Source: Squalus acanthias (Eukaryota). Taken from it: a stretch of DNA of 64,000 nt. The translations under genes and the position numbers were made by a program. The stretch covers positions 36,518,001 to 36,582,000 of the forward strand of contig CM059449.1 in assembly GCA_030390025.1 (NCBI GenBank), given 5' to 3'. The notes below the pieces were generated by a model. The model was not told the origin of the DNA and made no database searches. It worked only from the letters and a program-made list of their open reading frames with translations. How positions within the stretch are numbered: the stretch's first letter is position 1; every line of letters begins with the position of its first letter. Shown piece after piece: positions 1 through 32,824 of this stretch.

Positions 1-42
1 CCGCCAACCCTCACCTCACTCCCCCCACGACCCTATTTGCAG

Positions 43-932
43 CAAACTTGGTGGCCATTGTGATTCTCTCCCGGGGAAAGTGCGGCCTCTCGAAATGCAT
101 CACTATTTATCTGGTGGCCATGGCAGCGGCAGATCTACTGGTCCTGATATTTGATGTGGTCCTGTATGAGATGAATGAAATTTATTTCCCGGATTCATTC
201 CTGGACTACACTCCGGTCTGCAGTATGAATTTGTTCCTGATTTTTGCTTCTATTGAATGTTCTGTCTGGTTTACTGTCGCTTTCACCTTTGATCGATTTG
301 TCGCCATCTGTTGCCAGAAAATAAGGACTCAATATTGCAACGAAAAAACTGCGGCGGTGGTTGTAGCAACCATATCGGGGCTGAGCATTTTGGAAAACAT
401 CCACATTTACTTTACTTTAGAACCTCGCGTAATAATTGACAATTTACCGTGGTTCTGTGATGTGAAATCAAGCTCCTATACTGTACCTATATGGGTTACA
501 TTCATATGGCTTGACATAGTTTTAATGCCTTTTATTCCGTTTCTTTTGATTCTGATATTCAATGGTCTCACCATCCGGCACATTCTTCTGACAAGTAGAA
601 TCAGGAGGGGTCTCCGAAGCAGCGACAGTGACCCAGAAATGGACAACCGCAGGAAATCCATCGTTTTACTGCTTGTCATATCTGGCACTTTTATAATGTT
701 ATGGACGGTAACTTTTATTCATTATATCTGTGCACAAATTACAGAAATTCAATATTTGCACACAGATTACAGTAATCCTTTCACCATCATGGAACAAACT
801 GGATATATGCTGCAACATTTGAGTTCCTGCACAAATACCATTATTTATGCAGTGTCCCAGACTAAATTCAGAGAGGAGTTAAAGATTCTGATTCAATATC
901 CCCTGTCTCTAATTACTAAGTTAAGGAAATAA
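43..932 (+). CDS. Terminal coding exon of a GPR139/GPR142-like orphan class A GPCR (N-terminus/TM1 start lies upstream of the window)
   Basis: Acceptor ctatttgcAG at 41-42, then an open frame to TAA 930-932. TM2 YLVAMAAADLLVL, TM3 SVWFTVAFTFDRFVAIC (DRF), TM7 CTNTIIY and helix 8 KFREEL. The SVW-x-T...DR...C pattern resembles GPR139/142. Confidence 0.88.
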
Positions 933-1444
933 TTGAAAGGTCTGAGTCTAACCAGAACTGACTACAGAGAATTGAGACTCGCTTCCATCTTAATTCAGCA
1001 ACACGGGCAGCAGACGATCAGCCGCCTTTTATTCGCCCAACACGATGTTACTTTCGGTAGAGTTTAATGGAGAGGAAAGTCGGAGTGGGGGTGGGGGGGG
1101 GGGGTGTAATGAGCGCCCGACCTGCTCCCGCCTGTTTTGCGCCGCGCCTGAAAGTGAATTTCACCCCCGGTCGGTGGAACTTTCCCCTCTGGCGGGAGCG
1201 AGGTCAATGGAAGGAGATTCGGGCGGCGTTTATAAACAACAGGCGATCCAATTCTCCCCGTTTTACTCCACTCCGGCGTAGAAAGTTCGCTTAAAATATT
1301 CCCTAAATCTATTTGTAGTTATGTGACATTTTAACTTTCAACATGCCGCTGGAGCCTGAAACGGGTTTGCAGATTGTCCACCGGTGATCGAAACCTTCTT
1401 ATACTCATTCCCATTGTAAACACAGGGTTAGCAGCAGAGATCCC

Positions 1445-2172
1445 GGGCCTGAATTTGCGGTAGGAGGCTTCCCGCAGGCGGATGCCTCCGAACTGCAATT
1501 AAGCTACGCAGCTACCTGGAACCACGGAGACTCGCGCTCCTGGGCCTCTACCCGTACGCCTGCCTGGAGGACCACGTATCGCAGGGGCGCAATCGGTTCA
1601 CAGGCGTTCCTGGGTTCACGTAGGCCAGCCCAACCAATCCGAAAAGGGATTCCCATTATGCTTATGGAGATTCTATTTACGTACAGATTCCCGATAAGTT
1701 TGGTAGGAATCACCGAAAATCACATGTACACAACCTTGAAAAAAAAATCGTTACACGTTTAAAATTAATTAAAATACAATTTCATTAAACAATTTCAATT
1801 TAAAACAAAAATGTAATTTTTTGAAATATAAATTGAAACAGTTCTAAGGAACCAAAAATAACACAAACTTATTTTACAGGTTTTGGAATGTTAAAACGAT
1901 TCCAAAAAAAAATGTGTAATATTTATTTTCACCCTTATGCTGGTAAAAGAAGACCGTGCGCCTGCTTTTACCAGTCATAAGAGTTTCATGGGCATTCGCT
2001 GAGCAAGATTTGGGCAAATAGCCAACTCTCCGCCCACGAATGTGCATTTCCTGCGCATGAATCTTGACAGTTCGCAAGTTCAGGATTTTCACGCATGCGC
2101 AGCCCATATGTAAACCTGGAACTTGCGAGGCACGAACGGCCACGTACACACCACGTACGCAGTCATAGGCGA
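1445..2172. mobile_element. Non-autonomous DNA transposon (MITE), PIF/Harbinger-like, same family as 55121-55897
   Basis: Left end GGGCCTGAATTTGCG, GC-rich arms around an AT-rich core, and shared motifs with the 55121 copy (aggcttcccgc, ccaatc, gcatgcgc). The right TIR is degenerate. Confidence 0.55.
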
Positions 2173-4204
2173 CAGAACAGCCAGGCTATTATATTGGCCT
2201 CGCTCCCTTCAGTTACAGAGGAGAAGAGGCCTCGGAATTTGCTCCGGACCACTGTGTTGGCGATGCTGCTGGTGAAATGTGAGTGTGTGGACAGGATTGG
2301 GCTCGGCTGTGTTTCCAGTAATTGAACAGTGTTTCCACAGTCACTGTTTCTGCTCACAAGTGGAGACTGTTTACCTGAGGTCAATGTCGGAGCCAAGCTT
2401 TCAGGAGATGAGGGTAGAACATTGAAAATGAAATCAAGTTTGTGCTTATTAGGAATGTATTAATAGTAACAAAACTTATTTTTAAAATCCCTGGCGTGCC
2501 TTTATTCCGCACCGCTGTGATGTAATATCTAAAGCGCCAGCTTGTGCAATTGTAGATGAGATTTGACAAAGTTCCTTCAATGTTAAGCAAGTTAGTAATA
2601 TTCTAATAAAGTGACTGAAACATTAATCAGGGGTGAAATGTTGATGCCAATAGAGTTGTTTCAGTAATAAAGCAATTGATCCACGATGATTATTCCTGCG
2701 TCTTCTTGGATCCAATGCAAATCTCACGATGGAAACTTTCAGGTTCTGTTGAAACAACATTGTAATCTAGGGAGTGAAACACAAATGTTAGAAAATCCAG
2801 AGATGATGGTGCAGAGCACAGTACAGAGAATGCACTGACTTGTTCATTAACTTTTCATGGTTCTTCCCCTTACATGTAGCTCAGTGGCAGTTAGTTTGGT
2901 GCACAGGAGCAGCGGGCCTAAAGGGCGGTCAATTCTCACAGCCCTCGCCCGGAGTAAACGGAGTAAATGGCCTCCAAATGGGGCCGGTAGCCTTATCCTC
3001 CCGCTGACGTTGTGAAGGCTCCAATCAGTTCCACAGGGGATGGAACCGAAGAGACTTGCTTGTACTGCCGGGCTGCAGAGTCAGTATCGCCCAATTTAAA
3101 CTACCACCCACGGCAAATTTATACCCCCATGGGTGTCATTGTATTTGTTGGCGTTCATGTGAACAGGATATCGGATCGGGTATCTGTTATACACCTCCCA
3201 AGTTGTACTTTCCGTGAAGTCTGAACGGACGGCTGATCCGATAACGCCTGTTTTACATTATCTCCAAATCTGAAAATGACTCCCAATGACTCTCCTCCCT
3301 GTCTTGCCCCTATGAAGGTGCCATGACCGCAGTAGACACGGGCAATATTTGCCCTAATGATGCACTCTGGGAACTCAAATCTGTCGGAAGGTGTTTAAAA
3401 CCTGGGAGTTCTAGTCCACTTTGTAATCTTCTGATTATATTTCCATCTTTTACCTCATTGCCACTCGGAAACCATTTACATCTCCACCTTAGATTTGGTT
3501 TGAAAGAATATTCTGAAGGAGGCAGTCTCACTGTACTTCACCTGGTAGTCAGGTGGGGTCCTGAGTCTGGAATTCCACGAAAACATCCGGCGTTAAGCCA
3601 AACCAGTCCTTAGGGATCCAAAGGCTGCAGTGTGAATGTGGCTTATTCGAAGAGAAGGTAAATGTTCTAATGCAAAATCAGGAAGGTTATTAAACCTCTA
3701 TCACTGGAAGCGGATTCCGCAGCCTTACAACCCTCTGTGAAAAGAATCGTCACCTACCCTCTGTTCTAAATCTCTAAAATTTAACCTGGTATCTATAAAT
3801 CCTCCAGCTTGATCCTCAACTAATGGACACAGTCTGCTTCTATCTACCCTGAGTTATTCTTTCATCATTTTAAACACTTCTATTATATCACCCATAATAT
3901 GCATTGTTGAATAAAAATGCGCATTTTCCAAGTCTTTCTCTGCATTTGTGTTTCCTTCTTTCGGGCAGCATCTTAGTGAATCCACCTTGTAGCTTCTCGA
4001 AAGCTAAAGATCCCCCATATTGCGTGAAATTCAATACTGCACACATTGCTCTAACTCAGGTCTTACTAAGGTTTTATAGAGGCTCATAGTTATTAATTGG
4101 CTGTTAGGTTCTATACCTCCTGTGATTAAATATAGAATTCCATTAGTAAACTTTCCCTCGATAAAATTCCAGTTGTTCTTACACAAGTTAATAAATGAAC
4201 CATT

Positions 4205-4612
4205 TTAATCCCACTCCAGAGACTTGAGCACAAAAATCTAGACTGACACTCCAGTGAAGTACTAAGGAGTGCCACACTGTCGAGGGTGGCGTCTTTCGGA
4301 GGAGACATTAAATCGATGCCCCGTGTGCCTCTCAAGTGGACGTAAAAGATCCCATGGCACTATCTCCAAGAAGAGCAGAGAAGATCACTCCGGTTTCCTG
4401 GCCAATATTTATCCCGCATTCAACAACATTAAAAACAGGTTATCTGATCATTATCACACCGTTCTTTGTGGGAACTTGCTGTGCGCAAATTGGCTGCTGC
4501 GTTTCCTACATTGCAACAGTGACTGCACTTAAAAAGAAAGTACTTCATTGACTGTAAAGCGCTTTGGGACGTCCTGAGGTCGTGAAAGGTGCACGATATA
4601 AACGCATTTTTT
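4205..4612 (+). mobile_element. tRNA-derived Deu-domain SINE (SacSINE1/AmnSINE-like), 5' truncated
   Basis: cccactccagagacttgagcac head remnant, Deu core ...AAAGATCCCATGGCACT...CCTGGCCAATATTTATCCC, and tail ctttgggacgtcctgaggtcgtgaaagg. Near-identical to the copies at 16135 and 38100. Confidence 0.75.
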
Positions 4613-5764
4613 TCTTTTTTTCTTTATAACAGATATTTTAAATTCAAATATAATTCTGGGGCAGGACAAATGATGTTCTGCAAAGCCGCTGTGTAATAAT
4701 TTTACAAACAAGAGTGTAACATTATTCACTCGCCTTACCTCTCCATTTTCTCCTCCAAATATAGATTAACACGATAACATTAGCCAGCGATACCAGTACA
4801 CACACGACAATCAGCCCCACATGCTTGTCTTTCTCTACTTTTCCTTCTGAAAAAGATTAGCAAGGGTTGTATAATTATATGTGCGGATTGACAGTTTTAT
4901 ATACAATCTGTGGAAACCTATGGCCCTGCTCATGGTAATTAGGATGATGTGCTACTTTCTATGGACAGTATCCCCACACCATATAGTGCACAATGAATTA
5001 TTTCACTAAGGTGGAGCTAGGTCTCTTTAAAACCACAAAGTTCACTTTTGTGAATAAACACAGGTTCTGGTCAACGAGAGGTGGTCAGGCTGTAAAGGTG
5101 ACTGGGGGTTGGTGAGGGAAGAAGCAGTGGCTGTGAAGAGTGAAGCATGGTCTGTGGACTGATCGTGGCTGGGCCAGCGATAAGAATGTGCTGCTGGGAG
5201 GCTAATGTAAAAGGGTTGTGGTCGTGGTGCCCAGCGAGGCAGGGGGTAAGCTAGCTGTCCCCTCCTCCCCAACCCCCCATGGATCGCTGACTGAGGGGAG
5301 CCAGGTAGGAAAGCGGCAGAGGCCTGTGTCTGCGGGCCTGGTGAAAGGAGCAATATGAGGGGTAAGGAATGGCAGTTGAATAGATTATGCCACTATGCCA
5401 GCTCCCAGGGGTGTGGATCGAGCTTCTGACCGTCCCCACATGTCCGTGTGATGGAAGGCGGCTCAAGGTGCAAAGTTTACATTTAATTCACGGAGCAAAA
5501 TGTTTATCTGCTTTTTCTTATCTGCAGCAACATGGCTGCAGTCTCAAAAACCCAGAATGCCCCACAGTGACACTCAGTGGTCAGAGTCTGTAACTGCATA
5601 CAGACTCAATTTTTTTTAACGTTCATTCTCAATATACTGCAAGTTCAGCTTTGTGGTATCGTTTAACAATAGGCGGCACCTTATCATTTTCAATCTGTCA
5701 CCTAATGTAATATTAGATTGGGGAAGCAGCTTTGGAATCTTGACCACACTCAGCATTTCCAAAA

Positions 5765-6254
5765 TAGACAGATAGAAATCCAGATACAGCGACAGAGAGA
5801 CAAAAAGTAGGAGAGAGAGAGAGTGACAGTGAGAGAGACAGATAGAGAGACNNNNNNNNNNNNNNNNNNNNNNNNNNNNNNNNNNNNNNNNNNNNNNNNN
5901 NNNNNNNNNNNNNNNNNNNNNNNNNNNNNNNNNNNNNNNNNNNNNNNNNNNNNNNNNNNNNNNNNNNNNNNNNNNNNNNNNNNNNNNNNNNNNNNNNNNN
6001 NNNNNNNNNNNNNNNNNNNNNNNNNNNNNNNNNNNNNNNNNNNNNNNNNNNNNNNAGAGATNNNNNNNNNNNNNNNNNNNNNNNNNNNNNNNNNNNNNNN
6101 NNNNNNNNNNNNNNNNNNNNNNNNNNNNNNNNNNNNNNNNNNNNNNNNNNNNNNNNNNNNNNNNNNNNNNNNNNNNNNNNNNNNNNNNNNNNNNNNNNNN
6201 NNNNNNNNNNNNNNNNNNNNNNNNNNNNNNNNNNNNNNNNNNNNNNNNNNNNNA
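5765..6254. repeat. (AG)n/(AGAC)n microsatellite running into assembly gaps
   Basis: gagagagagaga/gacagataga runs next to N blocks 5852-6055 and 6062-6254. Confidence 0.8.
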
Positions 6255-7454
6255 TGAAACGGTGTATATGCAGCTTATAAAACTGACCTTTAGTGATCCG
6301 ATTGTCTAATTGAAGGGATTGTCATAAACAACTGCGACCTGCACAGGTTGGGCCACAACATCTGGAAATTGCCCTCAGCAGAGGATCGGCGCAGTAACCG
6401 ATCAGAATTACATTTCCAGATCAGAAGGATCATCCTACCTGTTCCCCTCAGGGAGGCACCTTTCCATGGAGAGACCTGAATGAGCAGCACCGTTATCTAT
6501 TAAACAATTTTTGGTAGATGTTCACTGCGCCGCTCTGGTGTGAACCTGCCCCTGTGGATCACCGGCCTTGTCACAGAAACTGCCCGCTTTTTATTCCCAT
6601 TGGAGGCAACTCCGGTTTTACACCGGGCGGCAGGTTGGAAATCTACCCCGCTGTGTCTAAACCAATAGCAGAAGTTTCCCTGGAGTCATTTGTTGACCCT
6701 GTTAATCACCAACAGCAATTTATAGGCTTATCTCCTGGGGTTCCCCCTCCAGCTGTCCCAGCCTCCATTCTTGCTGCAGATTATTGCTTTCTGGGCAAAG
6801 CCCACCGCCCCCCACCTTCCCTGCCTGCAGCTCCCAGTGCACTTCGGCCCATCCCCGCCTCAGGAGCCCAGCCTCAGACTCACCCTTACCGCCAGGCCGC
6901 ATTATTTAAACCCCCTCCCCCCACTGCGCTACATTTTAATGACCTTTCCTCACAACACTTCCCCACTCCTCCTCTAATATCCCAAAGTGACCCGTCCTCT
7001 CATTCCCCAAAAGAGCAAAGAGAGAAGAGAAGCAAAAACACACTGAGGCTGAGAGGGTAATAGCTCAGCACAGAGCAAAAGTTCAGCTCAGAAACCGAGC
7101 AGAGCCATCACCACAGTGAAAGGGAACAACAATGAGAAAGCAGAAACAAAGAGTGAAGGAACAGCAAGTCATTCAAATAAAGAGTCTGATATCTGAAAGT
7201 GGGTGGTGAATGTAGATTAATCCATTCTCTAACCCAGATAGACTGGCAACAGCGATTAATTTGTTGTCCAACTCTGAGACCGTGCGGTGTGTGTGGGGTG
7301 TGGGTATGTGGTGGAGATAGACAGTAAGAAGCAATGGGAAAGATATATAGAGAAAGCAACTGTGTGAGAAGCACACACTGAGGGGTAGGTGCATATTATG
7401 GAAGAGTCAGAAGATAACAGAAATGGACTAAATGAGAGCAAGAATGATTAACAG

Positions 7455-7669
7455 TCACAGACAAGCTGAAGTACAGAGATAATAAACGTGTTGTCTGATG
7501 TATAATGTAATAGAGAGAAAGAACAAGACAGAGAAAAGTGACGGACAAGAAAAGACAGTTAGTGGGAGTGGAAGATTCCAGTTTTCCTGTTCTTGTCCAT
7601 CAGCAAAAGCACAGACGACCCAATAGTAACAAATAAACATCACTGGGAGACAGAATATCCGGTTCATTT
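7455..7669 (-). CDS. MHC class I-like gene, candidate transmembrane/cytoplasmic exon
   Basis: Polypyrimidine tract plus ctctAG acceptor (7671-7670), phase-1 compatible with alpha3. In frame it reads EMNRIFCLPVMFICYYWVVCAFA...; a shifted frame reads CLFVTIGSSVLLLMDKNRKTGIFHSH* (stop at 7561-7559). Confidence 0.55.
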
Positions 7670-7815
7670 CTAGAGAATAGAATAGAAAAGCAGGGGGGTA
7701 ATGTGCAATTTGGTTCAGTCATTCATTTCATTGATCTCTTTCTGCTCTCTATCTCTGTATGGGTGAGTGTTGCTATTATTGATGGATTGTTCAGTATCGC
7801 TGTTCATGTCCTTAC

Positions 7816-8082
7816 CCCAGGAGACTGTCTTCCCACCCGGCAAGCTGCTGTGCTCAATAAGACAGGAGTATTGTTTCCCATCATACGGATCAAATTCAAG
7901 GGTTGTCGTGAGTTGATACGTCCCATCTTCATTGGGTAATAGCCCAGTAGATTTAGTCTCAGGGACATGTTCTCCATTCTTCAACCAGGCCACGCTGATG
8001 GATTGCGGGAAAAATCCAGTCACAATGCAGTGGAGAAACCAACGATCACCAGCCCTGGCAATAACTGAGACCTCAGGGAAAA
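7816..8082 (-). CDS. MHC class I-like heavy chain, alpha3 (C1-set Ig) exon
   Basis: AG/GT-bounded 267-bp phase-1 exon: VFPEVSVIARAGDRWFLHCIVTGFFPQSISVAWLKNG...LLPNEDGTYQ...YSCLIEHSSL. These are C1-set motifs (C..TGFFP, W, PN.DGTYQ, YSC..EH.SL). Confidence 0.95.
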
Positions 8083-8310
8083 CTACATGATAGAACGACA
8101 GTTATATTCTACTTCAATAAAAGTCGCATATTTCACAATAGACTGAAGGAAGTCATTTTAACTTTTGCCACTAATGTAAAACAGGTGATGTCGGATCAGC
8201 CGCCTGTTAAAGGAGAATGGGGAGAGGTTTATAACGGAAGCTGATCCAATATCGCCAGTTCTACACTATCGCCAAACTTTAAAATTACTCCAAGTTTCTT
8301 TTGAACTTAC

Positions 8311-8586
8311 CTTGTCTGGTCAGTGATGCTTTTCCAATTGAATAGTATGTCCTCCATAAATCCACACAGTCCTTTTCTAACAAGCTCTTGAAATAAAGGT
8401 TCATCTTTGTTTCCTTATCCCATTTCACTTTGAGGGTCTGAGCTACTGGATCATGTACGGTCCAAACCAATTTGTCTTTATCGAAACTAAATGCGTATCT
8501 TCCATCATAAGCCAACTTCAAAACCCCTACACTAGGATTGGCATCATTCAGCTCACAGCCAAACAGTCCTTGAATGTAGTGAGTAC
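8311..8586 (-). CDS. MHC class I-like heavy chain, alpha2 exon
   Basis: 276-bp phase-1 exon (ttctAG...G|gtaag): THYIQGLFGCEL...AYDGR..F..DKDKLVW...AQTLKVKW...LEKDCVDLWRTYYSIGKASL. The C101-C164 pair and the H..Q...GC and AYDG motifs are present. Confidence 0.95.
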
Positions 8587-9509
8587 CTAGAACAGTAATT
8601 GAATCGATCAATAGATACATAATTATCACATCTAGTCACACCAAATATAAGAATTTCAGTTATTTTCTAGTCACTCTTTCCATTACTAAGGGTAGAAATT
8701 GAGTTTAGTGTCTAAAACAAGGTTCATCACACAGAAACATATAATTTACAGCACAGAAAGAGAACAATTGGCACCAAAGTTAAACAAAAGCTGTCTTCTG
8801 TAATATTCTTGCTATATTAGATGCTTAGAACTGCATGAATGACCCCAACAGTGTCCTAACCAATATCTTCTGTAAGTCAACATCAAGTCCCTGATGTTAT
8901 ATTCAAAGCCCCATTTAACAAAATACAGACGACGTGAAATTGGTCTTTTCCAGTAGTGCGAAATGGGCTCATAGCGAATCAGCAGCCAATTTTACACTCC
9001 AACCATTGTTCTTCTATTAACTTCAAAGATGTAAAATGGGCTGTCAATTCACCATGGCCCCAATGGAAGGGAAGATTGGGCGGAGTGTGTAATGGGTGGC
9101 CGAGCCAATATCACTCATTTTACACTGTCACCAAAAGTTAAAATTCACCCTCACATATGCAACACCACAGGAAATTGAGTAGAAAATTTAAAAATCTTAC
9201 ATCTGTGTGCAATTCCTGTCCACAAAAGCATACTTCCTATTGTCATATTTCTATTACATTTATGTTAACATTTCCATTTATAAATTCCTATGTCCACCTT
9301 TATAATGGAAGCTGCCACCGTAAGCTGGTCATGCTGTAATTACACCCTCCCACCGGTGGTGGCACTTTCGGACTTAGCTTTGCATTTCCCAGAGAAACTG
9401 CTGTGCTCCAAAAAATTCTACTTCTCAGCTTTCCAAATTAATAAATGTTGGTATTTAACTATAAATCTATCTATATTATATTAGAAATGTTATGTACTAC
9501 CTGTCCACA

Positions 9510-10495
9510 CAACGTACGCGTATAGTTTTGGTTCCTTATTTAAGGAGGGATATACTTGCATCGGAGGCAGTTCAAGAAGGTTCACTAGGTTGATTCCTGG
9601 AATGGAAGTGTTGTCTTCTGAGGAAAGGTTGAGCAGGTTAGGCCTATACTCATTGGAGTTTAAAAGAATGTCAGTTGATCTTATTGTAAAATATAAGATT
9701 TTCAGGGGGTTGGACAGGGTTGATGCTGAGAGGATGTTTTCACTCGTCAGGGAATCCAGAAGGAGGGGGCACAGTCTCAGAATAAGGGGTCGCCCATTTA
9801 CGACGGGGATGAGAGGAATTTCTTCTCTCAAGGTTCGTGAATCTTTGGAATTCTTTACCCCAGAGAGCTGTGGAAGCTGAGTAATTGATATATTCAAGGC
9901 TGAGATAGACAGATTTTTGAGCAACAGGGGAGTCAATGGTTATGGGGAGCGGGCAATAAAGTGGAGTTGAGGCCAAAATCGGATCAACCATGATCTCATT
10001 AAATGGTGGAGCAGGCTCGAGGGGCCATATGGCCTGCTCCTGCTCCTATTTCTTATTTTCTTAGTTTCTTATGTTCTTACTTCCTGTTGTCACATTTTTA
10101 TGAACCTTTTCCCATCATCAATTCCTCTGAATTCATGTTGAAAATCATGAAGGACTTGGATAGAGTGAATAAGGAGAAATTGTTTCCTGCGGCAGAGAGG
10201 TCGGTAACCAGAGCACACAGATTTATGGTAATTGGAAAAAGTACCAGAGCCGATATGAGGATTTTTTAACGCGGTGATTTGTGATAATCTGGAATGCATT
10301 ACCTGAAAAGATGCTTGAAGCAGATTCAATAGTGAATTTCAAAAGGGAATTGGATAAATACTTGAAGGGGCAACGTTGCAGGGCTATGGGGAAAGGGCAG
10401 GGGAGCGGGTCTAATTGGATAGCTTTCAAAGATCCGGCACAGGCACGAATGGGCCGAATGGCCTCTTTCTGTGCTGTATTATTCTATGATTCTAT
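9510..10495 (+). mobile_element. Two adjacent 5'-truncated CR1 LINE 3' ends (9510-10080, 10130-10495)
   Basis: ORF2 C-terminus RLSRLGLYSLEFKR...DRVDAERMF...RGHSLRIRGRPF and IWNALPE..EADS..FKRELD, plus short tandem 3' tails (ttcttatg / attctatg). Confidence 0.9.
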
Positions 10496-11490
10496 ATGTC
10501 CACATTTGAAATGGGAGTTGCCGATGTCAAGTCAGCCCGTTGCAATTGCACGCTCACTCCAGTGGTGGCGCTATTATGCCTCAGTTTTTTGTTGCCCAAC
10601 TCTTCAACATATATTTCTGGAAAACTCCCGTGTATAAACCAACTCTACTTCTCACCGTCACAATTTTCTAGTAATGTTGTTACCTAACTATAAATAACTT
10701 ACCAGAATATTAGCCAAAGCTGCCAGAATACATGCCAGAATGTATGACATTAAATTGGGGACTGATATATGTTTGCACAGCATAGGCTAACATTCCCTAT
10801 CATCCATCCTTATTACAATTGACTTTTCTCCATGGAGGTAATTTTGAATTTGGGTGAGAGTGTAAAATGGGCGATATTGGATCATCCGCCCATTTTGCAC
10901 CCCGCCTGATTTTCATATCCATAGAGGTCAATGGAAGGGAATATCAGACAAGGACTGTATTGGGTAGTCAGTTCGATATCGCTCATTTTAGACTATTGCC
11001 CAAATATAAAATTAACTCCAAATGAATAGAAAACTGCGGGCAGTGCATTATGCTTTTCTGATAAGCCACCTGCGGGATATAAGACGGCATTGTAGCCTCA
11101 AACTTACACATCTACATTAGATATCAAATATGTGCTTACCAATAGCACTGAACAAATGCAATGATATGAATAATAATCCTTCAATTAGATATTGCCAATA
11201 TAATTGAATAAACACAATATTGCCAATATGATTCAATAAATGTATTATTTCCAATGTTATTAAAAAATGTGTTATTAATATCATTCATTAAAAGTGATAT
11301 TACCATGAATGGGGTGGTTAATTTTAAATTGTGGTCATAGTGTAAAGCGGACAATATCCGGTCAGTGGCCTGTTATAAACCTCGCCCAATGGAAAGGGAA
11401 TGCGAGCGATGTGTAGAACGGGCGGTCGGTCCAATATTGGCCGTTTTACTCTTTTGCTGAAGAGTTAAAAATTACCCCAATAAACATAAT

Positions 11491-12084
11491 CGGGCAGAAA
11501 TTAGGCTCGCCATGGGTGAGTACGCGCTGTGTACTCACCCGTGGACGGAACGAACGTGCCGGTTTCTTGCATGCACTGCGCATGCGCGGGAAACCGGCAC
11601 TTCCGTTCCCCTGAAAGAAGGAGTTCAGAGGTCGAACGCGCACGCCGGAGGGCCAGCGCGTTCGCCTCGCACTTCGGGTTTTTTTACAGGTTCCTACGTG
11701 AGGGTAAGCACGGAGAAGATGCACATTGAAAAAGGAGGCGCAATGCCTTCTTTTAACAAGGTAAGTGTTGATTTTATTAACATTTAAACATTTTTTTCAC
11801 AGATTTATCTTTTTTAATTACTTTCAAGAAAGCCAAGTTTAGTTTTAGCCCTGTTAAAAAGTATAATTAACTTTTTCAAAAATTAAAATTTTTATTTAAA
11901 ATTGTTATTTTATTAAAAATTAATGTAATTTATAGTTATTTTAAAAATATGATTTTTTTTTTAATCTGTAGTTTTAGGGATGTTTTGGGGCTGATCTGTA
12001 TTCATAGATTTGACAGGTCTTCTTAGGAAGGTGTGCGTGCGATCCTTGCACCCGCGAGAAGCCAGGGAGCCGAATTTCTGGCCC
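11491..12084. mobile_element. PIF/Harbinger-like MITE
   Basis: TIRs cGGGCAGAAATTAGGCTC / GAGCCGAATTTCTGGCCC, 3-bp TSD AAT/AAT, subterminal hairpin at 11512-11542, AT-rich core. Confidence 0.7.
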
Positions 12085-12231
12085 AATTGAATAGTTACAT
12101 GTAAAATACCAGCAAAACAATTAAATAAACATAACATTACAAATACCTTTAATTAAATGTAATAATACAAATATCATTCAATAAACACTGGTGGTGGTGG
12201 GGAGGGGCGGATTTTTAACTGTTATCATTGT

Positions 12232-12725
12232 GAAATATGACCAATGCTGAATTGGCCGCACACTTTACACCATGTCCGAGCGTGGAGGAGTCCGTGTTCC
12301 ATGTATATATCGAATGTGAGAGGTTGCGGCTCCTTTTCCATTATTTGAAGGGGCTGTTCCTCGTTTTTTGGCTGCACTTCAGTCCCACGCTCCTGAACTT
12401 TGGTCACCCGGTGCGGAGGGGAGCGGACAGATCGGGGGACCTCCTGGTAGGACTGCTCCTGGCCAAAGAGGCCATCAACTGTTCCAGGCAGCGGGCGGTC
12501 GAGAGGTCGTTCGGCCCGACTGCCGACCTCTCTCCCGCGGCCACGTTCACGCCCGGGTGGCGCTGAAGATGGAGCACGCGGTTTCCGCCTGCACGCTCGT
12601 GACCTTCCGCGACCGGTGGGCACCACAGGGACTGGAGTGCATCTTCAACCCCGTAACCAAATTTTAATAAAAGTTGTTAGCTTTCCTTTAATGGTTTTTT
12701 TTTTGTTACAGTTTATTTGTTTTAT
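12232..12725 (+). mobile_element. Tx1/L1-clade LINE 3' fragment
   Basis: C..EES..H...EC zinc-knuckle-like motif, then LLFHYLKGLF...FWLHFSPTLL.FG and LAKEAI, typical of Tx1 ORF2 C-termini, followed by AATAAA and a T-rich tail. Confidence 0.65.
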
Positions 12726-13240
12726 AGTGTGCACCAAATAGTACACCATGTCCGATTTCAGAAAATCGATTGAGGTGTAAAACAACAGCTGATTCACAGG
12801 CGCCCGGGTTTTATCTGGTGTTGAATGTGAAATCAACTTATGCAGGGTTGCTGAACGGGTGGCAACGGGAAAAGTCGCCTGTTATACAACCCGGCCCATT
12901 TTACTGTGACGTGAAGGGAAAGGAAAAAGCAGGCAGCATGTATAAAGGGCAGCCTCGCTGCTATGCCCATTTTACACTCACCAACACTGAATTTCACCCC
13001 CAGTATCACCAATATCATTCATTGGGGTTAATGTTACCTTCCAGAGAGGGTGTAAAATGGGTGATATCCAATTAGTTGTCCATTATACACCTCGCCTAAT
13101 GTTCCTTTCTATTGAAGTCAATGGAAGGGAAAATGAGGCGGGGTGTATATCAGGCGGTTCGATATCACTCATGTTACACTATCCCCCAAGTTTAAATGAC
13201 CCCTGTCGTTCGCTGCATTCATTCAAACGAATACACTCAC

Positions 13241-13403
13241 TTGATGTTTGGTTGTTCTGCTGCAACCATCTATCAACCTGTCCCTTGATGAGTCCGTGGA
13301 AACCAGCTTGAGTTATTGTGTATTCGTCCCAGTAACTCTTCTCAAATGCTTCTGCCATCCATTGCTGTCTTGGAACAGTTATTTCCATATTTTTGTCGTA
13401 ATA
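13241..13403 (-). CDS. MHC class I-like heavy chain, 3' part of alpha1 exon (5' part and leader lost in the gap)
   Basis: YDKNMEITVPRQQWMAEAFEKSYWDEYT...DRWLQQNNQTS|gtgagt shows the P..WM, YWD and N86 NQT glycosylation motifs. Its phase-1 donor matches the alpha2 exon. Confidence 0.9.
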
Positions 13404-13903
13404 NNNNNNNNNNNNNNNNNNNNNNNNNNNNNNNNNNNNNNNNNNNNNNNNNNNNNNNNNNNNNNNNNNNNNNNNNNNNNNNNNNNNNNNNNNNNNNNNN
13501 NNNNNNNNNNNNNNNNNNNNNNNNNNNNNNNNNNNNNNNNNNNNNNNNNNNNNNNNNNNNNNNNNNNNNNNNNNNNNNNNNNNNNNNNNNNNNNNNNNNN
13601 NNNNNNNNNNNNNNNNNNNNNNNNNNNNNNNNNNNNNNNNNNNNNNNNNNNNNNNNNNNNNNNNNNNNNNNNNNNNNNNNNNNNNNNNNNNNNNNNNNNN
13701 NNNNNNNNNNNNNNNNNNNNNNNNNNNNNNNNNNNNNNNNNNNNNNNNNNNNNNNNNNNNNNNNNNNNNNNNNNNNNNNNNNNNNNNNNNNNNNNNNNNN
13801 NNNNNNNNNNNNNNNNNNNNNNNNNNNNNNNNNNNNNNNNNNNNNNNNNNNNNNNNNNNNNNNNNNNNNNNNNNNNNNNNNNNNNNNNNNNNNNNNNNNN
13901 NNN
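13404..13903. other. 500-N assembly gap
   Basis: Run of N. The round length suggests a scaffolding gap of unknown true size. Confidence 0.95.
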
Positions 13904-14460
13904 TTGGGGGTCGGTGATCACGGGGGGGTCAGTGTGGGGGAGAGATTGGGGGTCGGTGATCACGGGGGGGGTCAGTGTGGGGGAGAGATTGGGTGTCGGT
14001 GATCACGGGGGGTCAGTGTGGGGGGAGAGATTGGGGGTCGGTGATCACGGGGGGGTTAGTGTGGGGAGAGATTGGGGGGTCGGTGATCACGGGGGGTCAG
14101 TGTGGGGATAGATTGGGGGTCGGTGATCGGGGGGGCGTCAGTGTGGGGAGTGATTGGGGTCGGTGATCACGGCGGGGTCAGTGTGTGGAGAGATTGGGGG
14201 TCGGTGATCACGGGGGGTCAGTGTGGGGAGAGATTGGGGGGTCGGTGATCACGGGGGGTCAGTCTGGGGATAGATTGGGGGTCGGTGATCAGGGGGGGGT
14301 CAGTGTGGGGAGAGATTGGGGGTCGGTGATCATGGGGGGTGTCAGTGTGGGGGGAGAGATTGGGGGTCGGTGATCACGGGGGGTCAGTGTGGGGAAAGAT
14401 TGGGGGTCGGTGATCACGGGGGGTGTCAGTGTGGGGAGAGATTGGGGGTCGGTGATCACT
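13904..14460 (+). repeat. G-rich minisatellite, ~38-41 bp unit, ~14 copies
   Basis: Unit TTGGGGGTCGGTGATCACGGGGGGTCAGTGTGGGGAGAGA with variable G-run lengths. Confidence 0.95.
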
Positions 14461-14769: not shown

Positions 14770-15314
14770 CTACGGTTCGAAATGGCGCAGTTTAAGAGGA
14801 GCAGCATTTTTACCCTCATCGCACGTTCCAGGATAGAAATAAGGAAAGAGTTTCTCAGTGAATGTGTCAGTGAAAGTGTAGAGATTGGACATATCATCAG
14901 CATTGTAAAAGCTCACCTGTCCTCCCTCATAGTCCAGGTAAACTCCGATGGTCCTGGGCTTCACACTCGGGGTCAGTGGGACATGTGGGATTTCAACAGC
15001 TCTATATTCATTCCCATTTCTCAGCCACACAGCCCAGTTTCCATGTTCTGGCCCCAGGTATATCTGTCCCTTCCTATTGGCTGACTCTCTGGCCACACCC
15101 ACATCCCACTTCGTCTTGTTCCCGACCTCCACCTCCCAGTAGTGTTTCCCTGATGTGAATCCCTGTGACCCCAGGACACAAAGACACGTATCGAATCTCT
15201 CCGGGTTATCAGGAAGTTGTAATCCTCTGTTGCTGGGACTCACACTCGTCCGGTCCTCAGACAGGATGAGCTTAAGATGCGCTGTGTTTGGGTCCAGGGT
15301 CAGTGAGGCTGGGA
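14770..15314 (-). CDS. TRIM gene exon 6: PRY-SPRY (B30.2) domain
   Basis: Acceptor tttcccccAG. [13 protein letters not shown]...PERFD...[18 protein letters not shown]...WDVGVA...[16 protein letters not shown]...[12 protein letters not shown] stop. Confidence 0.95.
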
Positions 15315-15434
15315 CTGGGGGAAATATAAATGACATCACGTTAAATATTTTAGACAGAGGAAGATGGACGGACACAGGTTAATATCTGATGTCTGTAGAA
15401 CAGGACTCTGCACCCAGTCCATAATTTCTGTATC

Positions 15435-15635
15435 AATAAATACTGCAGACTGGATACAGTGTACAGTTAGATATATTCCCAGACTCCAGTATGTACAGTG
15501 AACAGATATTACAGACTGGATACAGTGTACAGTTAGATATATTCCCAGACTCCAGTGTGTACTGTGAACAGATATTACAGACTGGGTACAGTGAACAGTT
15601 AGATATATTCCCAGACTCCCGTGTGTACAGTGAAC
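15435..15635. repeat. 60-bp tandem repeat, ~3 copies
   Basis: Repeated cagactggatacagtgtacagttagatatattcccagactccagt... Confidence 0.85.
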
Positions 15636-15789
15636 ACAAGGACTGTGCAGTGGTCACTCCTACCAATACGGACATGGATTGGTGAGGACGAGGTCAAGTA
15701 GGTTATTCCCTCGTGTTCATTTTCTCACCACTTGCCATCAGCCCAGTCTTGTGCTTTGGTGGTACTGAGCCAGTCTTGGTGATGACTGA

Positions 15790-17245
15790 GCCTCCTATTT
15801 CTCATCTACATGCTTCCCCTCGGAGACAGCATCCGAAAACACAAGGTCAAGTTCCACACATACGCTGACGACACCCAGCTCTACCTCACCACCACCTCTC
15901 TCAACCCCTCACTGCCTCTGATTGGACACGCTACTTGTCCGACATCCACTTCTGAATGAGAATACATTTTCTCCAATTAAATAGTGGGAAGGCCGAAGCC
16001 ATTGTCTTTGGTCCCGGCCACAAACTCTCTTCCCGACTCACTGAATCCATCCCTCTTCCTGGCCACTGTATGAGGCTAAACCTCAGCGTCCTATTTGACC
16101 CTGAGCTGATCTTCAGACCCCATATGATGTCAGGCAAGGCTCAGTGGGCAGCACTCTTGCCTATGGGTCAGAAGGTTGTGGGTTCAAGTCCCACTCCAGA
16201 GACTTGAGCACAAAGTATAGGCGGACACTCCAGTGCAGTATTGATGGGGTGCTGCACTGCCAGAGGTGCCCTCTTTCAGATGAGACGTTAATCTGAGGCC
16301 CCGTCTGCTCTCCCAGCTGGATGTAAAAGATCCCGCATCATTTGAAGAAGAGCAGGGGAGTTCTCCCCGGTGTCCTGGACAATATTTATCCCTCAATCAA
16401 CATCACTAAAAAACAGATTAACTGGTCATCATCACAATGCTGTTTGTGGGAGCTTGCTGTGCGGAAATTGGCTGCTGCGTTTCCTACTTTAAAACAGTGA
16501 CTACAATTCAAAAGTACTTCATTGGCTGTAACGCGCTTTGAGACATCTTGAGGTCATGAAAGGCGCTATATAAATGCAAGTCTTTTATTCTTTCATATCC
16601 TCGCCATGCTCCTTCCACCTCAGCAACATCGCCCATCTCCACCCCTGCCTCAGCCCATCTGCTGCTGAAACCCTCATCCAAGCCTTTGTTACCTCCAGAC
16701 TCGACTATTCCAACACGCTCCTGGCTGGCCGGCCTCCCATCTTCCACCTTCTGTAAACTTCAGCTCATCCAAACCTCTGCTGCCCATATCCTAATTCACA
16801 CCAAGTCCCGTTCACCATCACCCCTGGGCTCGTTGGCCTACTTTGGCTCCCAGTCCAGCAACACCTCAATTTTAAAATTCTCATCCTTATTTTCAAAACC
16901 CTCTGTGGCTTTGCCCCTTCCTATCTCTGTAACCTCCTACAGCCCGCCGAGATCTCTGCTCTCCTCCAATTCTGGTCTCTTGCACACCTTCGATTTTAAT
17001 GGCTCCACCATTGGAGGCCGTGCCATCAGCTGCCAAGGCCCTGAGCTCTGGAATTCCCTCCTGAACCTCTCCGCCTCTCCACCTCTCTCTCCTCCTTTAA
17101 GATGCTGCTTAAAAACCTACCTCTTTGTCCAAGCATTTGGTCACCTGTCCTAATATCTCCTCATGTGGCTTGGCGTAAATTTTGTTCGATAACGCTCCTG
17201 TGAAGCGCCTTGGTAGGTTTTATTACGGAGACCTGCGGCAGCCCA
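15790..17245 (+). mobile_element. L2-clade LINE 3' fragment interrupted by a Deu-SINE
   Basis: RT motif YADDTQLY (tacgctgacgacacccagctctac), then AAETLIQAFVTSRLDYSN and ELWNSL; L2 tail ctgtgaagcgccttgg. Confidence 0.8.
16135..16590 (+). mobile_element. tRNA-derived Deu-domain SINE, near full length
   Basis: A-box-like ggctcagtgg, B-box ggttcaagtcc, Deu core and L2-like tail ending gcgctatataaatgcaag. Confidence 0.8.
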
Positions 17246-17249
17246 GCCC

Positions 17250-20200
17250 AGCATTGAAACAGGGCGGGAACTGGAGCAGTTTAAAGGAGACCCGCGGAGG
17301 AGAAACAAACCCAGAGAAAAATCACAGAGACGTCATAATCAGCACAAGTGAGGAGCGTTGGGCCGGAGGAAATTCAGCGAGGTATTTAATTTACTACACA
17401 CTCTATTCTTAACTTAACTGTATTCAGTATCATTAATAAATAATATAAAACTTAGTTTAAAAACAGTGGGCAGTGAAACTAACGCAAGGGAAAATCTGAA
17501 AAAGTGACATCTCAGTGAGCAGCTCTGAGTGTGAGTAATCAGTGAACCATTTGTTTTTTTTTAAACAAAAGCTGTCTACCTAATTTTAATTCAGGCTATC
17601 AATAAACAAGTAAATAAAAAAGACTAGAGATGGCAGGGCAGGCTAGGTGTCGGGACTGTAGTTTGTGGGAGTTTGTGGAGAGCGAGACTGTCCCGGATTC
17701 CCACATCAGCAGAAAACGTCTCTGCCTTCAGTCACTCCGGCTCAGAGACTTGACCTGGAGTGTGAGTTAGAGACACTCCGAAACATAAGGGAGGGGAGGA
17801 ATTTCTGGATAGTTTCATCCAGTCACACCCCAGAGGAAAGCACAGGTTCAGGAAAAGATGTACTCGCTACCTGTGAGGACAAAGAGAAAGACTGTGGGGA
17901 GGACAGCCGCAATGCAGACTAAGGCACCATGGCTCAGAAGGCTGTCCAAGGGAGGTAGAGCAGAATAGAAATGTGGTCGTGACAGGGTATTCTATAATTA
18001 GGGGGATAGATAGCATCCTCTGCAGCCACGAATGTGAATCCCAAAGGATGTGTTGCCTACCGGGGTAAGGGATAACTCGAGGTGGCTGGGGAGAAATTTG
18101 GAAAGGGAGGGTGTAAATCCAGTTGTTGTGGTCCATGTTGGACCAAACAACATAGATAGGAACAGGGAGGAGGTCCCGCTGAGGGAGTATCAGGTATTAG
18201 GAACTTTTTTTAAAAACAGGATCTCTGGATTATTACCTGAGCCACGTGCAAATTGGCATATAGACTGACCGATCAGGTGAGTTAACATGTGGCTAAGTGG
18301 CTGGTGTGGGAGAGAGAGGTTCCTTTCCATGGGACACCGGCACCAGTACTGGGACAGGGAGGAGCTGTACCGATGGGACAGGCTTCACCTGAACCGGAAT
18401 GGGAACAGTGTCAAAGCGGAAAGGGTAAATAGGGAGGTAGCAAAGGCTTTAAACTAGTAAGACGGGGTTGAGGGGGAGGGATCAACAAGAAATGAATAAA
18501 GCTTAAATATAAACGAAACCGGAAAGGAGAGCATGGAACAGAGCAAACAGGGAGGACATAAATAGCCAGGGAATAAATAGAGTTATAGAACAGGGGAGTA
18601 AAAACATGGTTTAAAATTAAATTAAGAGGAACTGCTATTAAAAATGGCCAGAAGAGGGAGGTAAAGGGGATAAGGGAATGGAGTTCCTACAATGTGTACA
18701 GGACTCCTTTCTAACCCAATATGTAAGAAGCGCAACAAGGGAGGATTCGCTACTGGTTCTGGTAATGGGGAATGAACCTGAGCAGATAATAGAAGTAAAA
18801 GTAGGGGAACATCTCGGCAATAGTGACCATAATATAATACGGTTTACGATAATGATTGAGAAGGACATAACCATGACAAAGACCAGGGTAATAGATTGCA
18901 GAAAAACTGATTGAGAGGCTGAGAATAGAACTTGGGAAAATAAAATGGACAACAATATTGGCAAAGAATGATGTAGAACACCAATGGGAAACATTTAAAA
19001 CAGTGTTCAACAGAGCCCAGGAAAAATATATTCTGCTAAAAAAGCAAGAAGAAGCTAAACACTAATGAGACACCACGGATGAATAAAGACAGGAGGGAAA
19101 ACTGAGGGTAAGGAAAGCGACATACACTGAGTACATGGACAACAGGGGAGAGAATGACAAGGGAGAATATGAAGAGACTAGGAGAGAAGTCAAAAAAACA
19201 ATTAGGAAGGCAAATAGGAACTATGAAATTAAATTATCAAGGAACATAAAACAAATAGTAAAATATTCCACAGGCACATAAATAAAAAAAGGAAAATCGG
19301 GGTGGGAATAGAGCCACTCAGGGACGGTCAGGATAAAATCACAGGCAGTGATAATGAAATGGTAGAAATATTAAATAATTACTTTGCTTCAGTCTTTACC
19401 AGTGAGACAGATCAGGTGGACATGACATCAGAAGATGAAATTAGAAATGATATAACGCATTTAAAATAAAGAGGAGAAATATTAAATGAACAAATCAAAC
19501 TCAAAGAGGATAAAACTCCTGGTCTGGCCGGATTACATCTGTGCATTTTAAAAGAATCTAGAGAAGAGATGATAGAGGCATTACTACACATATTTAATAA
19601 TTCGTTAGAAAAAGGTGTAGTGTCAGAGGACTGGCAGACAGCTAATGTTACACCTATATTTAAGAAGGGAGATAGAACATGTCCAGGGAACTATAGACCA
19701 GTCAGCTTAACATTGGTCGTCGGAAAAATAATGGAATCCCCACTAAAGGATAGAAAATAGAAAAGTAAATTTGCATACTAAGGAGGACTGCAACAAATTA
19801 CGGGAAGACATTAACAAACTTGCAGAATGGGTATACAATTGTTAAATCAATTTCAACATAGATAAGTGTGAGGTATTACATTTTGGTAAGAAAAATAAGG
19901 AAATCAGATATTACTTGGAAAATATGAATCTAAATAGGGTAGAAGAGTAAAGGGATCTGGGAATACAAATACACAAATCACTAAAAGTAGCAACACAGGT
20001 TAATACGGCCATAACAAAAGCAAACCCAGCACTATGGATTATTTCTACAGGGATCGAATTGAAAAGTAGACGAGTTGTGCGAAACTTGTATCGAACCTTG
20101 GTTAGACCACATTTGGAGCACATCTGCTCGCCATGTTATAAAAAGGATATAGAGGCACTGGAGAGGGTGAGGGAAGATTTACAAGGATGATACCAGAAAT

Positions 20201-20668
20201 GCGAGGGTTTACCTATCAGGAAATGATGAACAGGTTGGGTCTCTTTTCTCTTTCTCTTGAAAAGAGATGGCTGAGGGGTGACCTAATAGGGGTCTTTAAA
20301 ATTATAACAGGTTTTGATAGAGTAGACACAGAGAGAGTGTTTCCACTTGTGGGGAAGAGCAAAACAAGAGGCCATCAAAATAAGATAGTCACCAAGAAAT
20401 CAAATAGGGAATTCAGGAGAAACTTCTTTACCCAGAGAGTGGTGAGAATGTGGAACTTCCTACCACTGGGAGTGGTTGAGGTGAATAGTATAATTGCATT
20501 TAAGGGGAGGCTACATAAGTATATGAGGGAGAAGGGAATAGAGGGTTCTGCTGATAGAGTTAGATGAGGAAGGATGGGAGGAGGCTCGAGTGGAGCATAA
20601 ACGCCGACAGGGACTGGTTGGGTCGAATGGCCTGTTTCTGTGCTGTATATTCTGTGTAATTCTATGTA
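17250..20668 (+). mobile_element. Degenerate CR1 LINE (ORF1 esterase plus partly deleted ORF2) in TRIM intron 5
   Basis: VVVVHVGPNN (SGNH block), FLTQYV...LGNSDHN (APE), WQTANVTPIFKKG..PGNYRPVSLT (RT), FRRNFFTQRVV.MWN. Many stops and internal deletions. Confidence 0.9.
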
Positions 20669-20999
20669 AAAGTGCTGAATAAATGCAAGTTGTTGTTATG
20701 GGCTTTGAAGTCCACACTCAGAGTACATTCTGTGCCCTTGCTACCCTCAGTGCTTCTTCCAAGTGGTGTTCAACACGAAGGAGTACTGCTTCCTCAGCAG
20801 AAGGCCAAGAGACCGCAATGTTGAGGACTCCCACACCCACCCACCGTGCCCCCACCTCTGGTGGGTCTGTCCTGCCAGTGGGTCTGTTAGTGGGGAGCAC
20901 TTTGCAATGTAGACTGGGCTGGATGTGTTTTTGTCCTGCCCTAATTCAATGTCTAGTTCGCAGCCGAGAGGTCGGTAGGTTTTATTCTTGTTTTCCTTT

Positions 21000-21320
21000 C
21001 TAGTGGTTTTGATGTAACTGAGTGTCTCGCTCGTCCCCTTCAGAGGGAAGTCAAGAGTCAATGTTGGTGTGGGACTGGAGTCACATATAGGCCAGACCGG
21101 CTAAGGACAGCAAATTTCCTTCCCTAAAGGACATCAGTGAACCTGTTGGGTTTTTACGACAATCCGACAGCTTCACGGTCACTTTTACTGACACCAGCTC
21201 TTTATTCCAGATTTACTCATTGAACGGAAGTTAAATTCTCAAACTGCCATGGTGGGATTAATCTCACACTCTCTGGATTATTAGTCCAGTAACACAACCA
21301 CTCCACTATCGCACCCTCTA
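21000..21320 (-). mobile_element. Probable tRNA-derived SINE of a second family
   Basis: Minus-strand tRNA-like head near 21240-21320, followed by a tccttagggaaggaaatttg-like body. Confidence 0.45.
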
Positions 21321-21715
21321 CAGTACAATAAGCATTCTCTCAATGACTGTTCCAGTGGGTGCACCATTAGAAAGTTTATGAAGTATTTGCCGTGTGGGGT
21401 AAGGATAGGAGACATGGTAAATAACAGAGGTTGATGTTTAACTTGCTGCCTGAGTATAAAAGTGGAGTTGGGGATTGGCCTCCCATTATAGAAACCGCCC
21501 ACTGACATCACCACAACTAAACACTCCCAACAAGCATATTCCACAAAAAGCTCACATTAACGGGAAAATTACACTCAAAATCTCCCAATACAGCAATCAC
21601 ACCAGTGGAAAGTGTATCAAGGTCAGTGACGGTATGTGAGGGTGGGCGGCAGGGGTGGGTGTACGGCTCAGTGAAGGTACAAAGTCGCACAGAGCAGAGG
21701 ATCTACCATCAGTAT

Positions 21716-22020
21716 TCCTGGGTCAGAGAGGAACACAATCAGCCCGGGGTCCCAGTCTGATCACTGTGCAGTGAGTCCTGGGTCAGAGAGGAACACAATC
21801 AGCCCGGGGTCCCAGTCTGATCACTGTCCAGTGAGCCCTGGGTCAGAGAGGAACACAATCAGCCCGGGGTCCCAGTCTCATCACTGTCCAGTGAGTCCTG
21901 GGTCAGAGAGGAACATAATCAGCCAGAGGTCCCAGTCTGATCACTGTCCAGGTGAGTCCTGGGTCAGGGAGGAACACAATCAGCCCGGGGTCCCAGTCGG
22001 ATCACTGTCCAGTGAGCCCT
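21716..22020. repeat. 60-bp tandem repeat, 5 copies
   Basis: Unit cctgggtcagagaggaacacaatcagcccggggtcccagtctgatcactgtccagtgagt, in register across consecutive lines. Confidence 0.95.
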
Positions 22021-22282
22021 AATGGAAAGTGCGAGTGTCTGGATGTCAAATAAGATGATGTTCTGATGCCCTCATGCTTGAATCGCTCAATCTGAGCTCC
22101 CACATACAGAACATAAGAAGTAAGAGCAGGAGTAGGACATACGGCCCCTCGAGCCTGCTCCGCCATTCAATAAGATCGTGGCTGATCATCGACCTCAACT
22201 CCACTTTCCCGCCCGATCTCCATATCCCTTGATTCCCCTAGAGTCCAAAACTCTGTCTATCTCAGCCTTGAATATACTCAAA

Positions 22283-24113: not shown

Positions 24114-24570
24114 AAAGACTCAGCATTCACAGCCCTCTGGGGCAGAGAATTCCAAAGATTCACAACCCTCTGAGTGAAGAAATTCCTCCTCATCTCAGTC
24201 TTAAATGGCCTACCCCTTATCCTGAGACTATGCCCCCTAGTTCTAGACACTCCAGCCAGGGGAAACAATCTCTCAGCATCTACCCTGTCAATCCCCTTCA
24301 GAATCTTGTATGTTTCAATGAGATCACCGCTCATTCTTCTAAACTCCAGAGAGTATAGGCTCATTCTGCACAATCTCTCATCATAGGACAGCCCTCTCAT
24401 CCCAGGAATCTATCTAGTGAATCTTCGTTGCACTCAACGAATGGCCCCTTGAGTGAGGCTCCAGAGCTGCTGCCCCAGTGATCTGTACCAGCAACAGGCA
24501 GCACCTTCAGGAGAGGGGGAAGAGAGCAGGACACGACAGAAAGTGGACACAAAGCTGTGGAGTTTCTTAC

Positions 24571-24716
24571 CTGGAGAGATGATCTGTTTCATTTCCTTCC
24601 ACACTGCGTAGAGTAACGGGCCTCGAAACACTGTGTATTTCAGACTTGCAGACACCAGGATCTCTTCATCTTCACCTCTCTCTGCACCTTCACCTTCCTC
24701 GCCTTTGTCCAGGTAC
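24571..24716 (-). CDS. TRIM gene exon 5 (linker with acidic stretch)
   Basis: aacAG...G|gtaag, 146 bp: YLDKGEEGEGAERGEDEEILVSASLKYTVFRGPLLYAVWKEMKQIISP. The GP..Y.VWK.M motif is typical of the linker before PRY. Confidence 0.9.
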
Positions 24717-24806
24717 CTGTTTGAATGGGATTGATTCAGTCACTCACTGCAGGATACAAACTGTGATCACAGTGTCAGACGGTGTGGGTTTGGATTGGAT
24801 ACTCAC

Positions 24807-24829
24807 CTTTCTCTCAATCTTTTCAGTTC
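24807..24829 (-). CDS. TRIM gene exon 4 (23-bp micro-exon)
   Basis: cctgcAG|GAACTGAAAAGATTGAGAGAAAG|gtgagt. A 23-bp exon at this position is characteristic of PRY-SPRY TRIMs. Confidence 0.9.
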
Positions 24830-32790: not shown

Positions 32791-32824
32791 CTCAGTTGCT
32801 GCTCCTTATTCTGTCGCTCACTTT

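Follow-up and report, generated by a model that had tools for sequence, protein, structure and literature searches.

A stretch of 64,000 nucleotides from the Squalus acanthias genome (assembly GCA_030390025.1, contig CM059449.1, positions 36,518,001 to 36,582,000; hereafter the window) carries on its minus strand a class I gene of the major histocompatibility complex (MHC) in which half of the classical anchor residues of the groove are replaced. Such a gene raises the questions of which lineage it belongs to, which ligand its groove would accommodate and whether this copy is still a working one. The gene is a copy of the elasmobranch lineage UGA, and we consider it likely that it encodes a membrane glycoprotein that would pair with beta2-microglobulin and, like CD1, offer lipids to T cells.

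Placement in the UGA lineage

By its sequence the window gene is one copy of UGA, a non-classical class I lineage of elasmobranchs that already has a name. The best match of each domain in the PDB is the same chain, 9CH4_A, with 39 of 54 identical residues in alpha1, 64 of 90 in alpha2 and 64 of 87 in alpha3 (71-74%, counted from the printed alignments; E-values 5e-25, 7e-42 and 6e-41). Entry 9CH4, released on 2026-03-18, bears the title 'Crystal structure of shark nonclassical MHC CLASS I, UGA', and its sequence is letter for letter the nurse shark (G. cirratum) UGA found in Supplementary File 10 of PMC10751288. The likeness to nurse shark UGA extends to the anchor pattern (Y7, Y59, K146, W147 and Y171 kept; 84, 123, 143, 159 and 167 changed), to G97 and to the exon layout, and identity to the UGA orthologs of sharks and rays is 54-90% per domain. 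Within UGA, the window copy is distinguished by L116 and L143, where most paralogs have F, by an Asn in the membrane anchor and by a tail extension of 20 residues.

The other class I genes of the same genome are much more distant in alpha1 and alpha2, with 30-34% identity for UAA, 23% for UCA, 22-26% for UEA-like and 26-38% for UBA genes, values that do not place the window gene in UCA, UEA or UBA. The lineage labels of these genes come from by-eye comparison with sequences in the PMC10751288 supplement, and the UCA alpha2 on contig C2098 is identical to the published Squalus acanthias UCA alpha2. Nor did the gene fall in UDA or UFA when compared, by eye only, with the sequences published in that supplement. 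Trees were built by domain from six of the 22 UGA copies of this genome, 17 UGA orthologs, 11 rows of a sister gene described below and the genome's own UAA, UBA, UCA and UEA-like exons; the alpha3 tree had no UAA row, and no tree had UDA, UFA, CD1 or MR1 rows. All three group the window gene with UGA. The clade that holds the genome's own copies has a support of 100/99 in alpha2 and 100/98 in alpha3, and in the alpha1 tree UGA and the sister gene split off from UAA, UBA and UEA-like genes at 95/93.

A sequence-only reading of the window had proposed a non-classical gene of a little-studied or new lineage. The non-classical character is supported; the novelty fails, because the domain-by-domain trees nest the gene in a lineage already characterised, named and structurally solved as 9CH4. 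One may argue for a new, unnamed lineage, or for a divergent classical UAA allele, from an identity of only about 30% to this genome's own UAA, UBA, UCA and UEA-like genes and from the database annotations of the UGA orthologs, which read merely 'F10 alpha chain-like' or 'MR1-like'. Given how closely the gene matches the UGA crystal sequence and how firmly the trees place it, this view is already refuted and retains practically no credibility.

The open literature on UGA remains sparse. Our searches, outside of which subscription papers lay, found no primary UGA paper, only the supplement, the PDB title and a review passage (PMC12562908) that describes both UFA and UGA as CD1-like, linked to the MHC and present in single or low copy number.

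Exon structure and a probable break inside alpha1

The gene extends past the interval 7816..13403 in which it was noticed, since a transmembrane exon (4846-4739) and a tail exon (2766-2690) can be added. In window positions its parts are as follows.

13404..13903, no strand: run of 500 N inside alpha1, probably a scaffolding break
13241..13403, minus strand: alpha1 exon, 3' part (163 of 261 nt), with Y59, Q84 and the N86 sequon; ends at the N run
8587..13240, minus strand: alpha1-alpha2 intron of 4654 nt, GT..AG; joint seen in four of four public runs
8311..8586, minus strand: alpha2 exon, with G97, C101, A123, L143, K146, W147, L159, C164, L167 and Y171
7816..8082, minus strand: alpha3 exon, Ig C1-set with both cysteines; matched by Pfam and by 9CH4_A
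4739..4846, minus strand: connecting peptide and transmembrane exon, found via orthologs; covered by transcript contigs of the family
2690..2766, minus strand: cytoplasmic tail exon, YNVV (YxxPhi) and 20 more residues; covered by family contigs in three of four runs

In-frame splicing of the three domain exons, as first proposed, is confirmed: their GT/AG sites are canonical and all in phase 1, and the frame stays open; the predicted N86 glycan site (N86-Q-T), the C101-C164 pair and both alpha3 cysteines are all present. The match to MHC class I is not a chance one, because the Pfam E-values are 8e-16 for MHC_I and 5e-20 for C1-set.

Homology of the window to the paralogs ends exactly where the N run begins, and a match to the leader or to the 5' part of alpha1 was found nowhere else in the window, including the DNA beyond the run. 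The unplaced contig G000:C812 starts with the first 98 nt of an alpha1 exon, a stretch that differs from each of the three nearest paralogs at 0-1 positions; together with the 163 nt of the window these 98 nt make up the exon of 261 nt, the two parts abutting without gap or overlap. Runs of exactly 500 N occur also in two other fetched regions, and the run alone would be insufficient to show a break. Because the start of C812 supplies exactly the missing 98 bases, a contig was probably broken here during scaffolding. C812 carries two leader exons, the first with a 1-nt insertion and the second intact, and the second leader joined to the window exons gives an open frame of 346 residues. For its protein this copy would have to use the second leader, given the insertion in the first.

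A break at this place implies that C812 adjoins the window gene and that the DNA past the N run was misjoined. Just past the run there is a 41-bp tandem repeat (13904-14459), directly followed by a TRIM gene with RING, B-box and PRY-SPRY domains (14773-32805, minus strand); both are probably not the true upstream of the window gene.

Groove and tail

In the HLA-A2 numbering, which was transferred by eye from the alignment in Supplementary File 10 of PMC10751288, the anchors first read as kept (Y59, K146, W147 and Y171) and as changed (84=Q, 143=L, 159=L and 167=L) are found at these very positions. To them can be added 123, an anchor changed to Ala, and Y7, which is kept and lies in the 5' part of alpha1 on C812. 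Five of the ten classical UAA anchors (7, 59, 84, 123, 143, 146, 147, 159, 167 and 171) are retained, which falls short of a classical molecule. In the same alignment G97 and L159 match human CD1. The anchor changes are traits of the whole UGA lineage and not peculiar to the window gene; L159 occurs in 17 of 17 UGA orthologs and G97 in 16.

The groove had been described as hydrophobic. At 43 positions taken to line the groove, the mean Kyte-Doolittle value is 0.41 in the window gene, against -0.50 and 0.05 in two UAA and 0.16 in one UBA, and the number of hydrophobic residues is 21, against 18 and 21 in the UAA and 22 in the UBA. The description holds in that the groove is more hydrophobic than that of classical UAA; by this simple count it is so only moderately. 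An AlphaFold model of a sawshark UGA ortholog, built on an alignment of 15 rows, was of low quality (mean pLDDT 60.8, with alpha1 below 50) and served for retrieving PDB titles by fold search, not for judging the groove.

With G97 on its floor, the groove of UGA would be deeper and greasier and, having no polar anchors at 84, 123, 143, 159 and 167, would be unable to hold the ends of a peptide. A non-peptide, hydrophobic ligand, as originally suggested, is likely in view of these anchor losses and of a personal communication cited in the review passage (PMC12562908), according to which results from crystallography and mass spectrometry point to CD1d-like lipids for UFA and UGA.

In the subfamily of the window gene an Asn interrupts the hydrophobic transmembrane stretch. 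The tail of the window copy contains a tyrosine endosomal motif of the CD1 type, YNVV, that is not terminal: as the stop found after YNGV in most paralogs is missing here, the tail runs on for another 20 residues. Tails with YNGV, YNFV or YNVV are present in the nine copies of this genome with a normal 3' end, and by eye a YxxPhi tail can be recognised in nine of 18 database orthologs. A passage of PMC5002281 gives YQNI, YQDI and YQGV as the tail ends of human CD1b, CD1c and CD1d. Since the UGA tails resemble these motifs, UGA is likely to be recycled via its tail, which may take the molecule through endosomes, the site of lipid exchange.

Transcripts of the UGA family

Of eight public runs listed, four, from two studies, were compared; none of those listed is recorded as RNA, the label being a guess for all four, and only spliced joints were relied on. 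The alpha1-alpha2 joint is present in contigs of all four runs and the alpha2-alpha3 joint in two, at the predicted GT..AG sites; members of the UGA family are thus transcribed, and their splicing agrees with the gene model. Among the joints listed for the transcript contigs, the one between the transmembrane and tail exons does not occur. In the membrane and tail exons the letters of the contigs mostly match another subfamily, so that no spliced transcript could be tied to the window copy itself. A 129-nt contig with no difference to the window alpha3, and at least six to each of the 17 other copies compared, was rejected as proof of expression, since a 551-nt contig of another run matches the same stretch yet has the transmembrane letters of other copies. 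The alpha3 stretch common to these two contigs suggests a shared conversion tract.

An expanded family with a conserved groove

The UGA gene itself is known; what is new here is its expansion to 22 loci, which contradicts the single- or low-copy description in the review (PMC12562908), a descriptive trait and no criterion of descent. Genome searches at high identity returned 19 alpha2, 22 alpha1 and 21 transmembrane matches, all lower bounds, corresponding to at least 22 loci, 16 on C26 (32.7-38.4 Mb) and six on unplaced contigs. Most of these loci appear to be real recent duplicates, because close pairs are 95-99% alike over their genomic spans while the alpha1-alpha2 introns differ in length (3.8-8.5 kb); some may be haplotype copies. 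Database UGA sequences form three clusters each in sawshark and sawfish.

Thirteen of the 22 loci (10 of the 16 on C26) have an open frame from leader to transmembrane exon with canonical splice sites, nine of them with a YxxPhi tail and four with a shifted tail that lacks the motif. The other nine are damaged: one is without alpha3, one without a membrane exon and three without alpha2 and most of alpha3, two have non-canonical acceptors, and in two the frame is broken by stops or a frameshift. For 16 copies whose domains are full-length, the ratio of nonsynonymous to synonymous differences per site (pN/pS) is 0.40 in alpha1, 0.34 in alpha2 and 0.25 in alpha3; it is 0.45 at groove positions against 0.35 elsewhere in alpha1 and alpha2, in comparisons of paralogs whose pairs are not independent. 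The UGA copies are under purifying selection, and the excess of amino-acid change at the groove that is typical of classical genes was not seen among these 16 paralogs. The copies vary in other respects, having a terminal YNGV, an extended tail (the window copy), a lost tyrosine, no membrane anchor or no alpha3. The family probably consists of about 22 young segmental duplicates that evolve by birth and death, with the groove conserved and the tails variable. Such tail variants on a near-constant groove form a natural series for testing how far lipid presentation in sharks depends on endosomal recycling.

The duplicated unit comprises a relic alpha1 exon, two alternative leaders, UGA and a receptor gene placed tail to tail with it. 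In the paralogs the two leaders precede alpha1 by about 4.4 and 2.2 kb; in three of four copies of the window gene's subfamily one is broken and the other open. The relic exon, upstream of most UGA copies, is frameshifted and has about 75% nucleotide identity to the UGA alpha1; the alpha1 search gave around 30 such weaker matches. As a second coding exon these were rejected, being frameshifted near the 3' end, interrupted by a stop in seven of the eight shown and situated upstream of both leaders.

The 3' flank of the gene (window 1-5851) is 99.3-99.6% identical to two paralogs and the gene body (6254-13403) about 95%, which suggests recent gene conversion or recombination. Large clustered expansions with sublineages and broken copies are known from shark UEA and UBA and from Xenopus XNC; UEA and UBA are lineages other than UGA, and here the expanded family is of the lipid type.

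Weighing the ligand and the state of the copy

With CD1 (human CD1b, c and d, and chicken CD1), UGA shares a small residue at 97, L159, the loss of polar peptide anchors, a short tail ending in YxxPhi (YNGV compared with YQGV in CD1d) and low groove variation among copies. It differs from CD1 in keeping Y7, Y59, K146, W147 and Y171, and its sequence is closer to MR1 and classical class I. MR1, which is conserved across species, is the best PDB match to UGA outside UGA; the lysine in its A' pocket that forms a Schiff base, K43, is aligned with a Thr in UGA (position 45 in HLA numbering). A table in PMC12562908 does not report MR1 from cartilaginous fish, and in the part of PMC10751288 that deals with UFA its orthology to CD1 is called unresolved.

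Several observations weigh against a CD1-like, lipid-presenting window gene. The gain in groove hydrophobicity over UAA is modest; G97 is also found in FcRn, in the Supplementary File 10 alignment of PMC10751288; the lipid binding rests on a second-hand report for the UGA of another species; and half of the database orthologs (9/18), as annotated, lack the tail motif. CD1 was absent from the 39 PDB sequences that match a UGA ortholog at E<=1e-40, the next matches after UGA being MR1 and classical class I. This last point and the five retained anchors, together with the YF1 structures with N-myristoylated ligands among the fold-search titles, would fit a hybrid or small ligand, such as a lipopeptide, an acylated amino acid or a restricted hydrophobic peptide, bound as in chicken YF1 in place of two-tailed lipids of the CD1 type. 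The reported CD1d-like lipids (PMC12562908) speak against this, as do the loss of Y159 and W167 from the N-terminal pocket for peptides and the Thr at the site of the MR1 lysine, and we regard such a ligand as improbable.

The state of the window copy is a separate matter. Its completeness hinges on joining two contigs, no transcript in the contigs of the four runs could be tied to it, and these contigs have the letters of other copies at all seven tail sites listed and, in most contigs, at the seven transmembrane sites listed. The gene could thus be UGA by descent and at the same time a decaying duplicate that yields little or no working protein, as would agree with the damage visible in nine of 22 loci, the frameshifted first leader, the transmembrane Asn and the lost tail stop. 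The second leader, the three domains, the cysteines, the sequon and the splice sites are all intact, though, and the nearest subfamilies are 91-98% identical in alpha1 and 92-95% in alpha2, with groove differences only at 116 and 143. Decay is therefore rather unlikely in our estimation, though a less distant prospect than a YF1-like ligand, and lipid presentation by a UGA copy remains our preferred reading. UGA would then be one of two candidates by which the origin of CD1-like lipid presentation moves back to the first jawed vertebrates.

A sister lineage of UGA

At 30.70 Mb of C26 (30697401-30710387) there is a single-copy class I gene that is 50, 39 and 47% identical to the window gene in alpha1, alpha2 and alpha3, and whose best PDB match is UGA. 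Its orthologs, 10 aligned proteins from sharks and rays, have 72-83% alpha2 identity and form a clade of their own. In its groove, Y7 and Y59 are lost (F7, H59), C99 is present and G97 and L159 are common with UGA; the mean hydrophobicity, 0.87-1.26, is above that of UGA. The frame is open in the leader and in all three domains, a search of about 20 kb of downstream DNA detected no transmembrane exon, and most database orthologs, by eye, are without a tail tyrosine motif. Sevengill shark has a cluster of 11 members, and consecutive accession numbers suggest that the gene neighbours UGA in two bamboo sharks. A by-eye comparison with the named sequences of the PMC10751288 supplement gave no match, and our literature searches found no name for the gene; it may be named in subscription papers, which were outside the search. 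As a conserved gene of sharks and rays it is new here, and a target for structural and lipidomic work of the kind done on UGA.

With this in mind, one may speculate, with little confidence, that lipid-presenting UGA has expanded into a family resembling CD1a-e, with a near-fixed groove and diversified trafficking, and that alongside it an unnamed and more hydrophobic sister lineage, older than the split of sharks and rays, is a candidate third lipid-presenting molecule.

Neighbouring genes and MHC linkage

Tail to tail with the window gene lies a receptor exon that does not encode an MHC protein.

3..929, plus strand: rhodopsin-family receptor exon (Pfam 7tm_1, E=1e-21)

The exon is GPR139-like, a name taken from the sawfish annotation in the PMC10751288 supplement. 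Within the fetched flanks a related sequence follows 15 of the 22 UGA copies, intact in some subfamilies and fragmented in another. As regards linkage to the MHC, C812 (893 kb), the apparent continuation of the window gene, bears UBA-type class I genes, and UAA is on unplaced contigs. A class II beta search of the assembly was blank everywhere. The MHC of this assembly is fragmented, because its UAA-, UBA-, UCA- and UEA-like genes sit on the unplaced contigs C3751, C3487, C812, C3328, C2098 and C3663. In the sawfish MHC-Ib cluster of the same supplement, receptor and TRIM genes are found near UGA, as in the window. A skate gene model fuses UGA with such a receptor, which is probably an annotation artefact.

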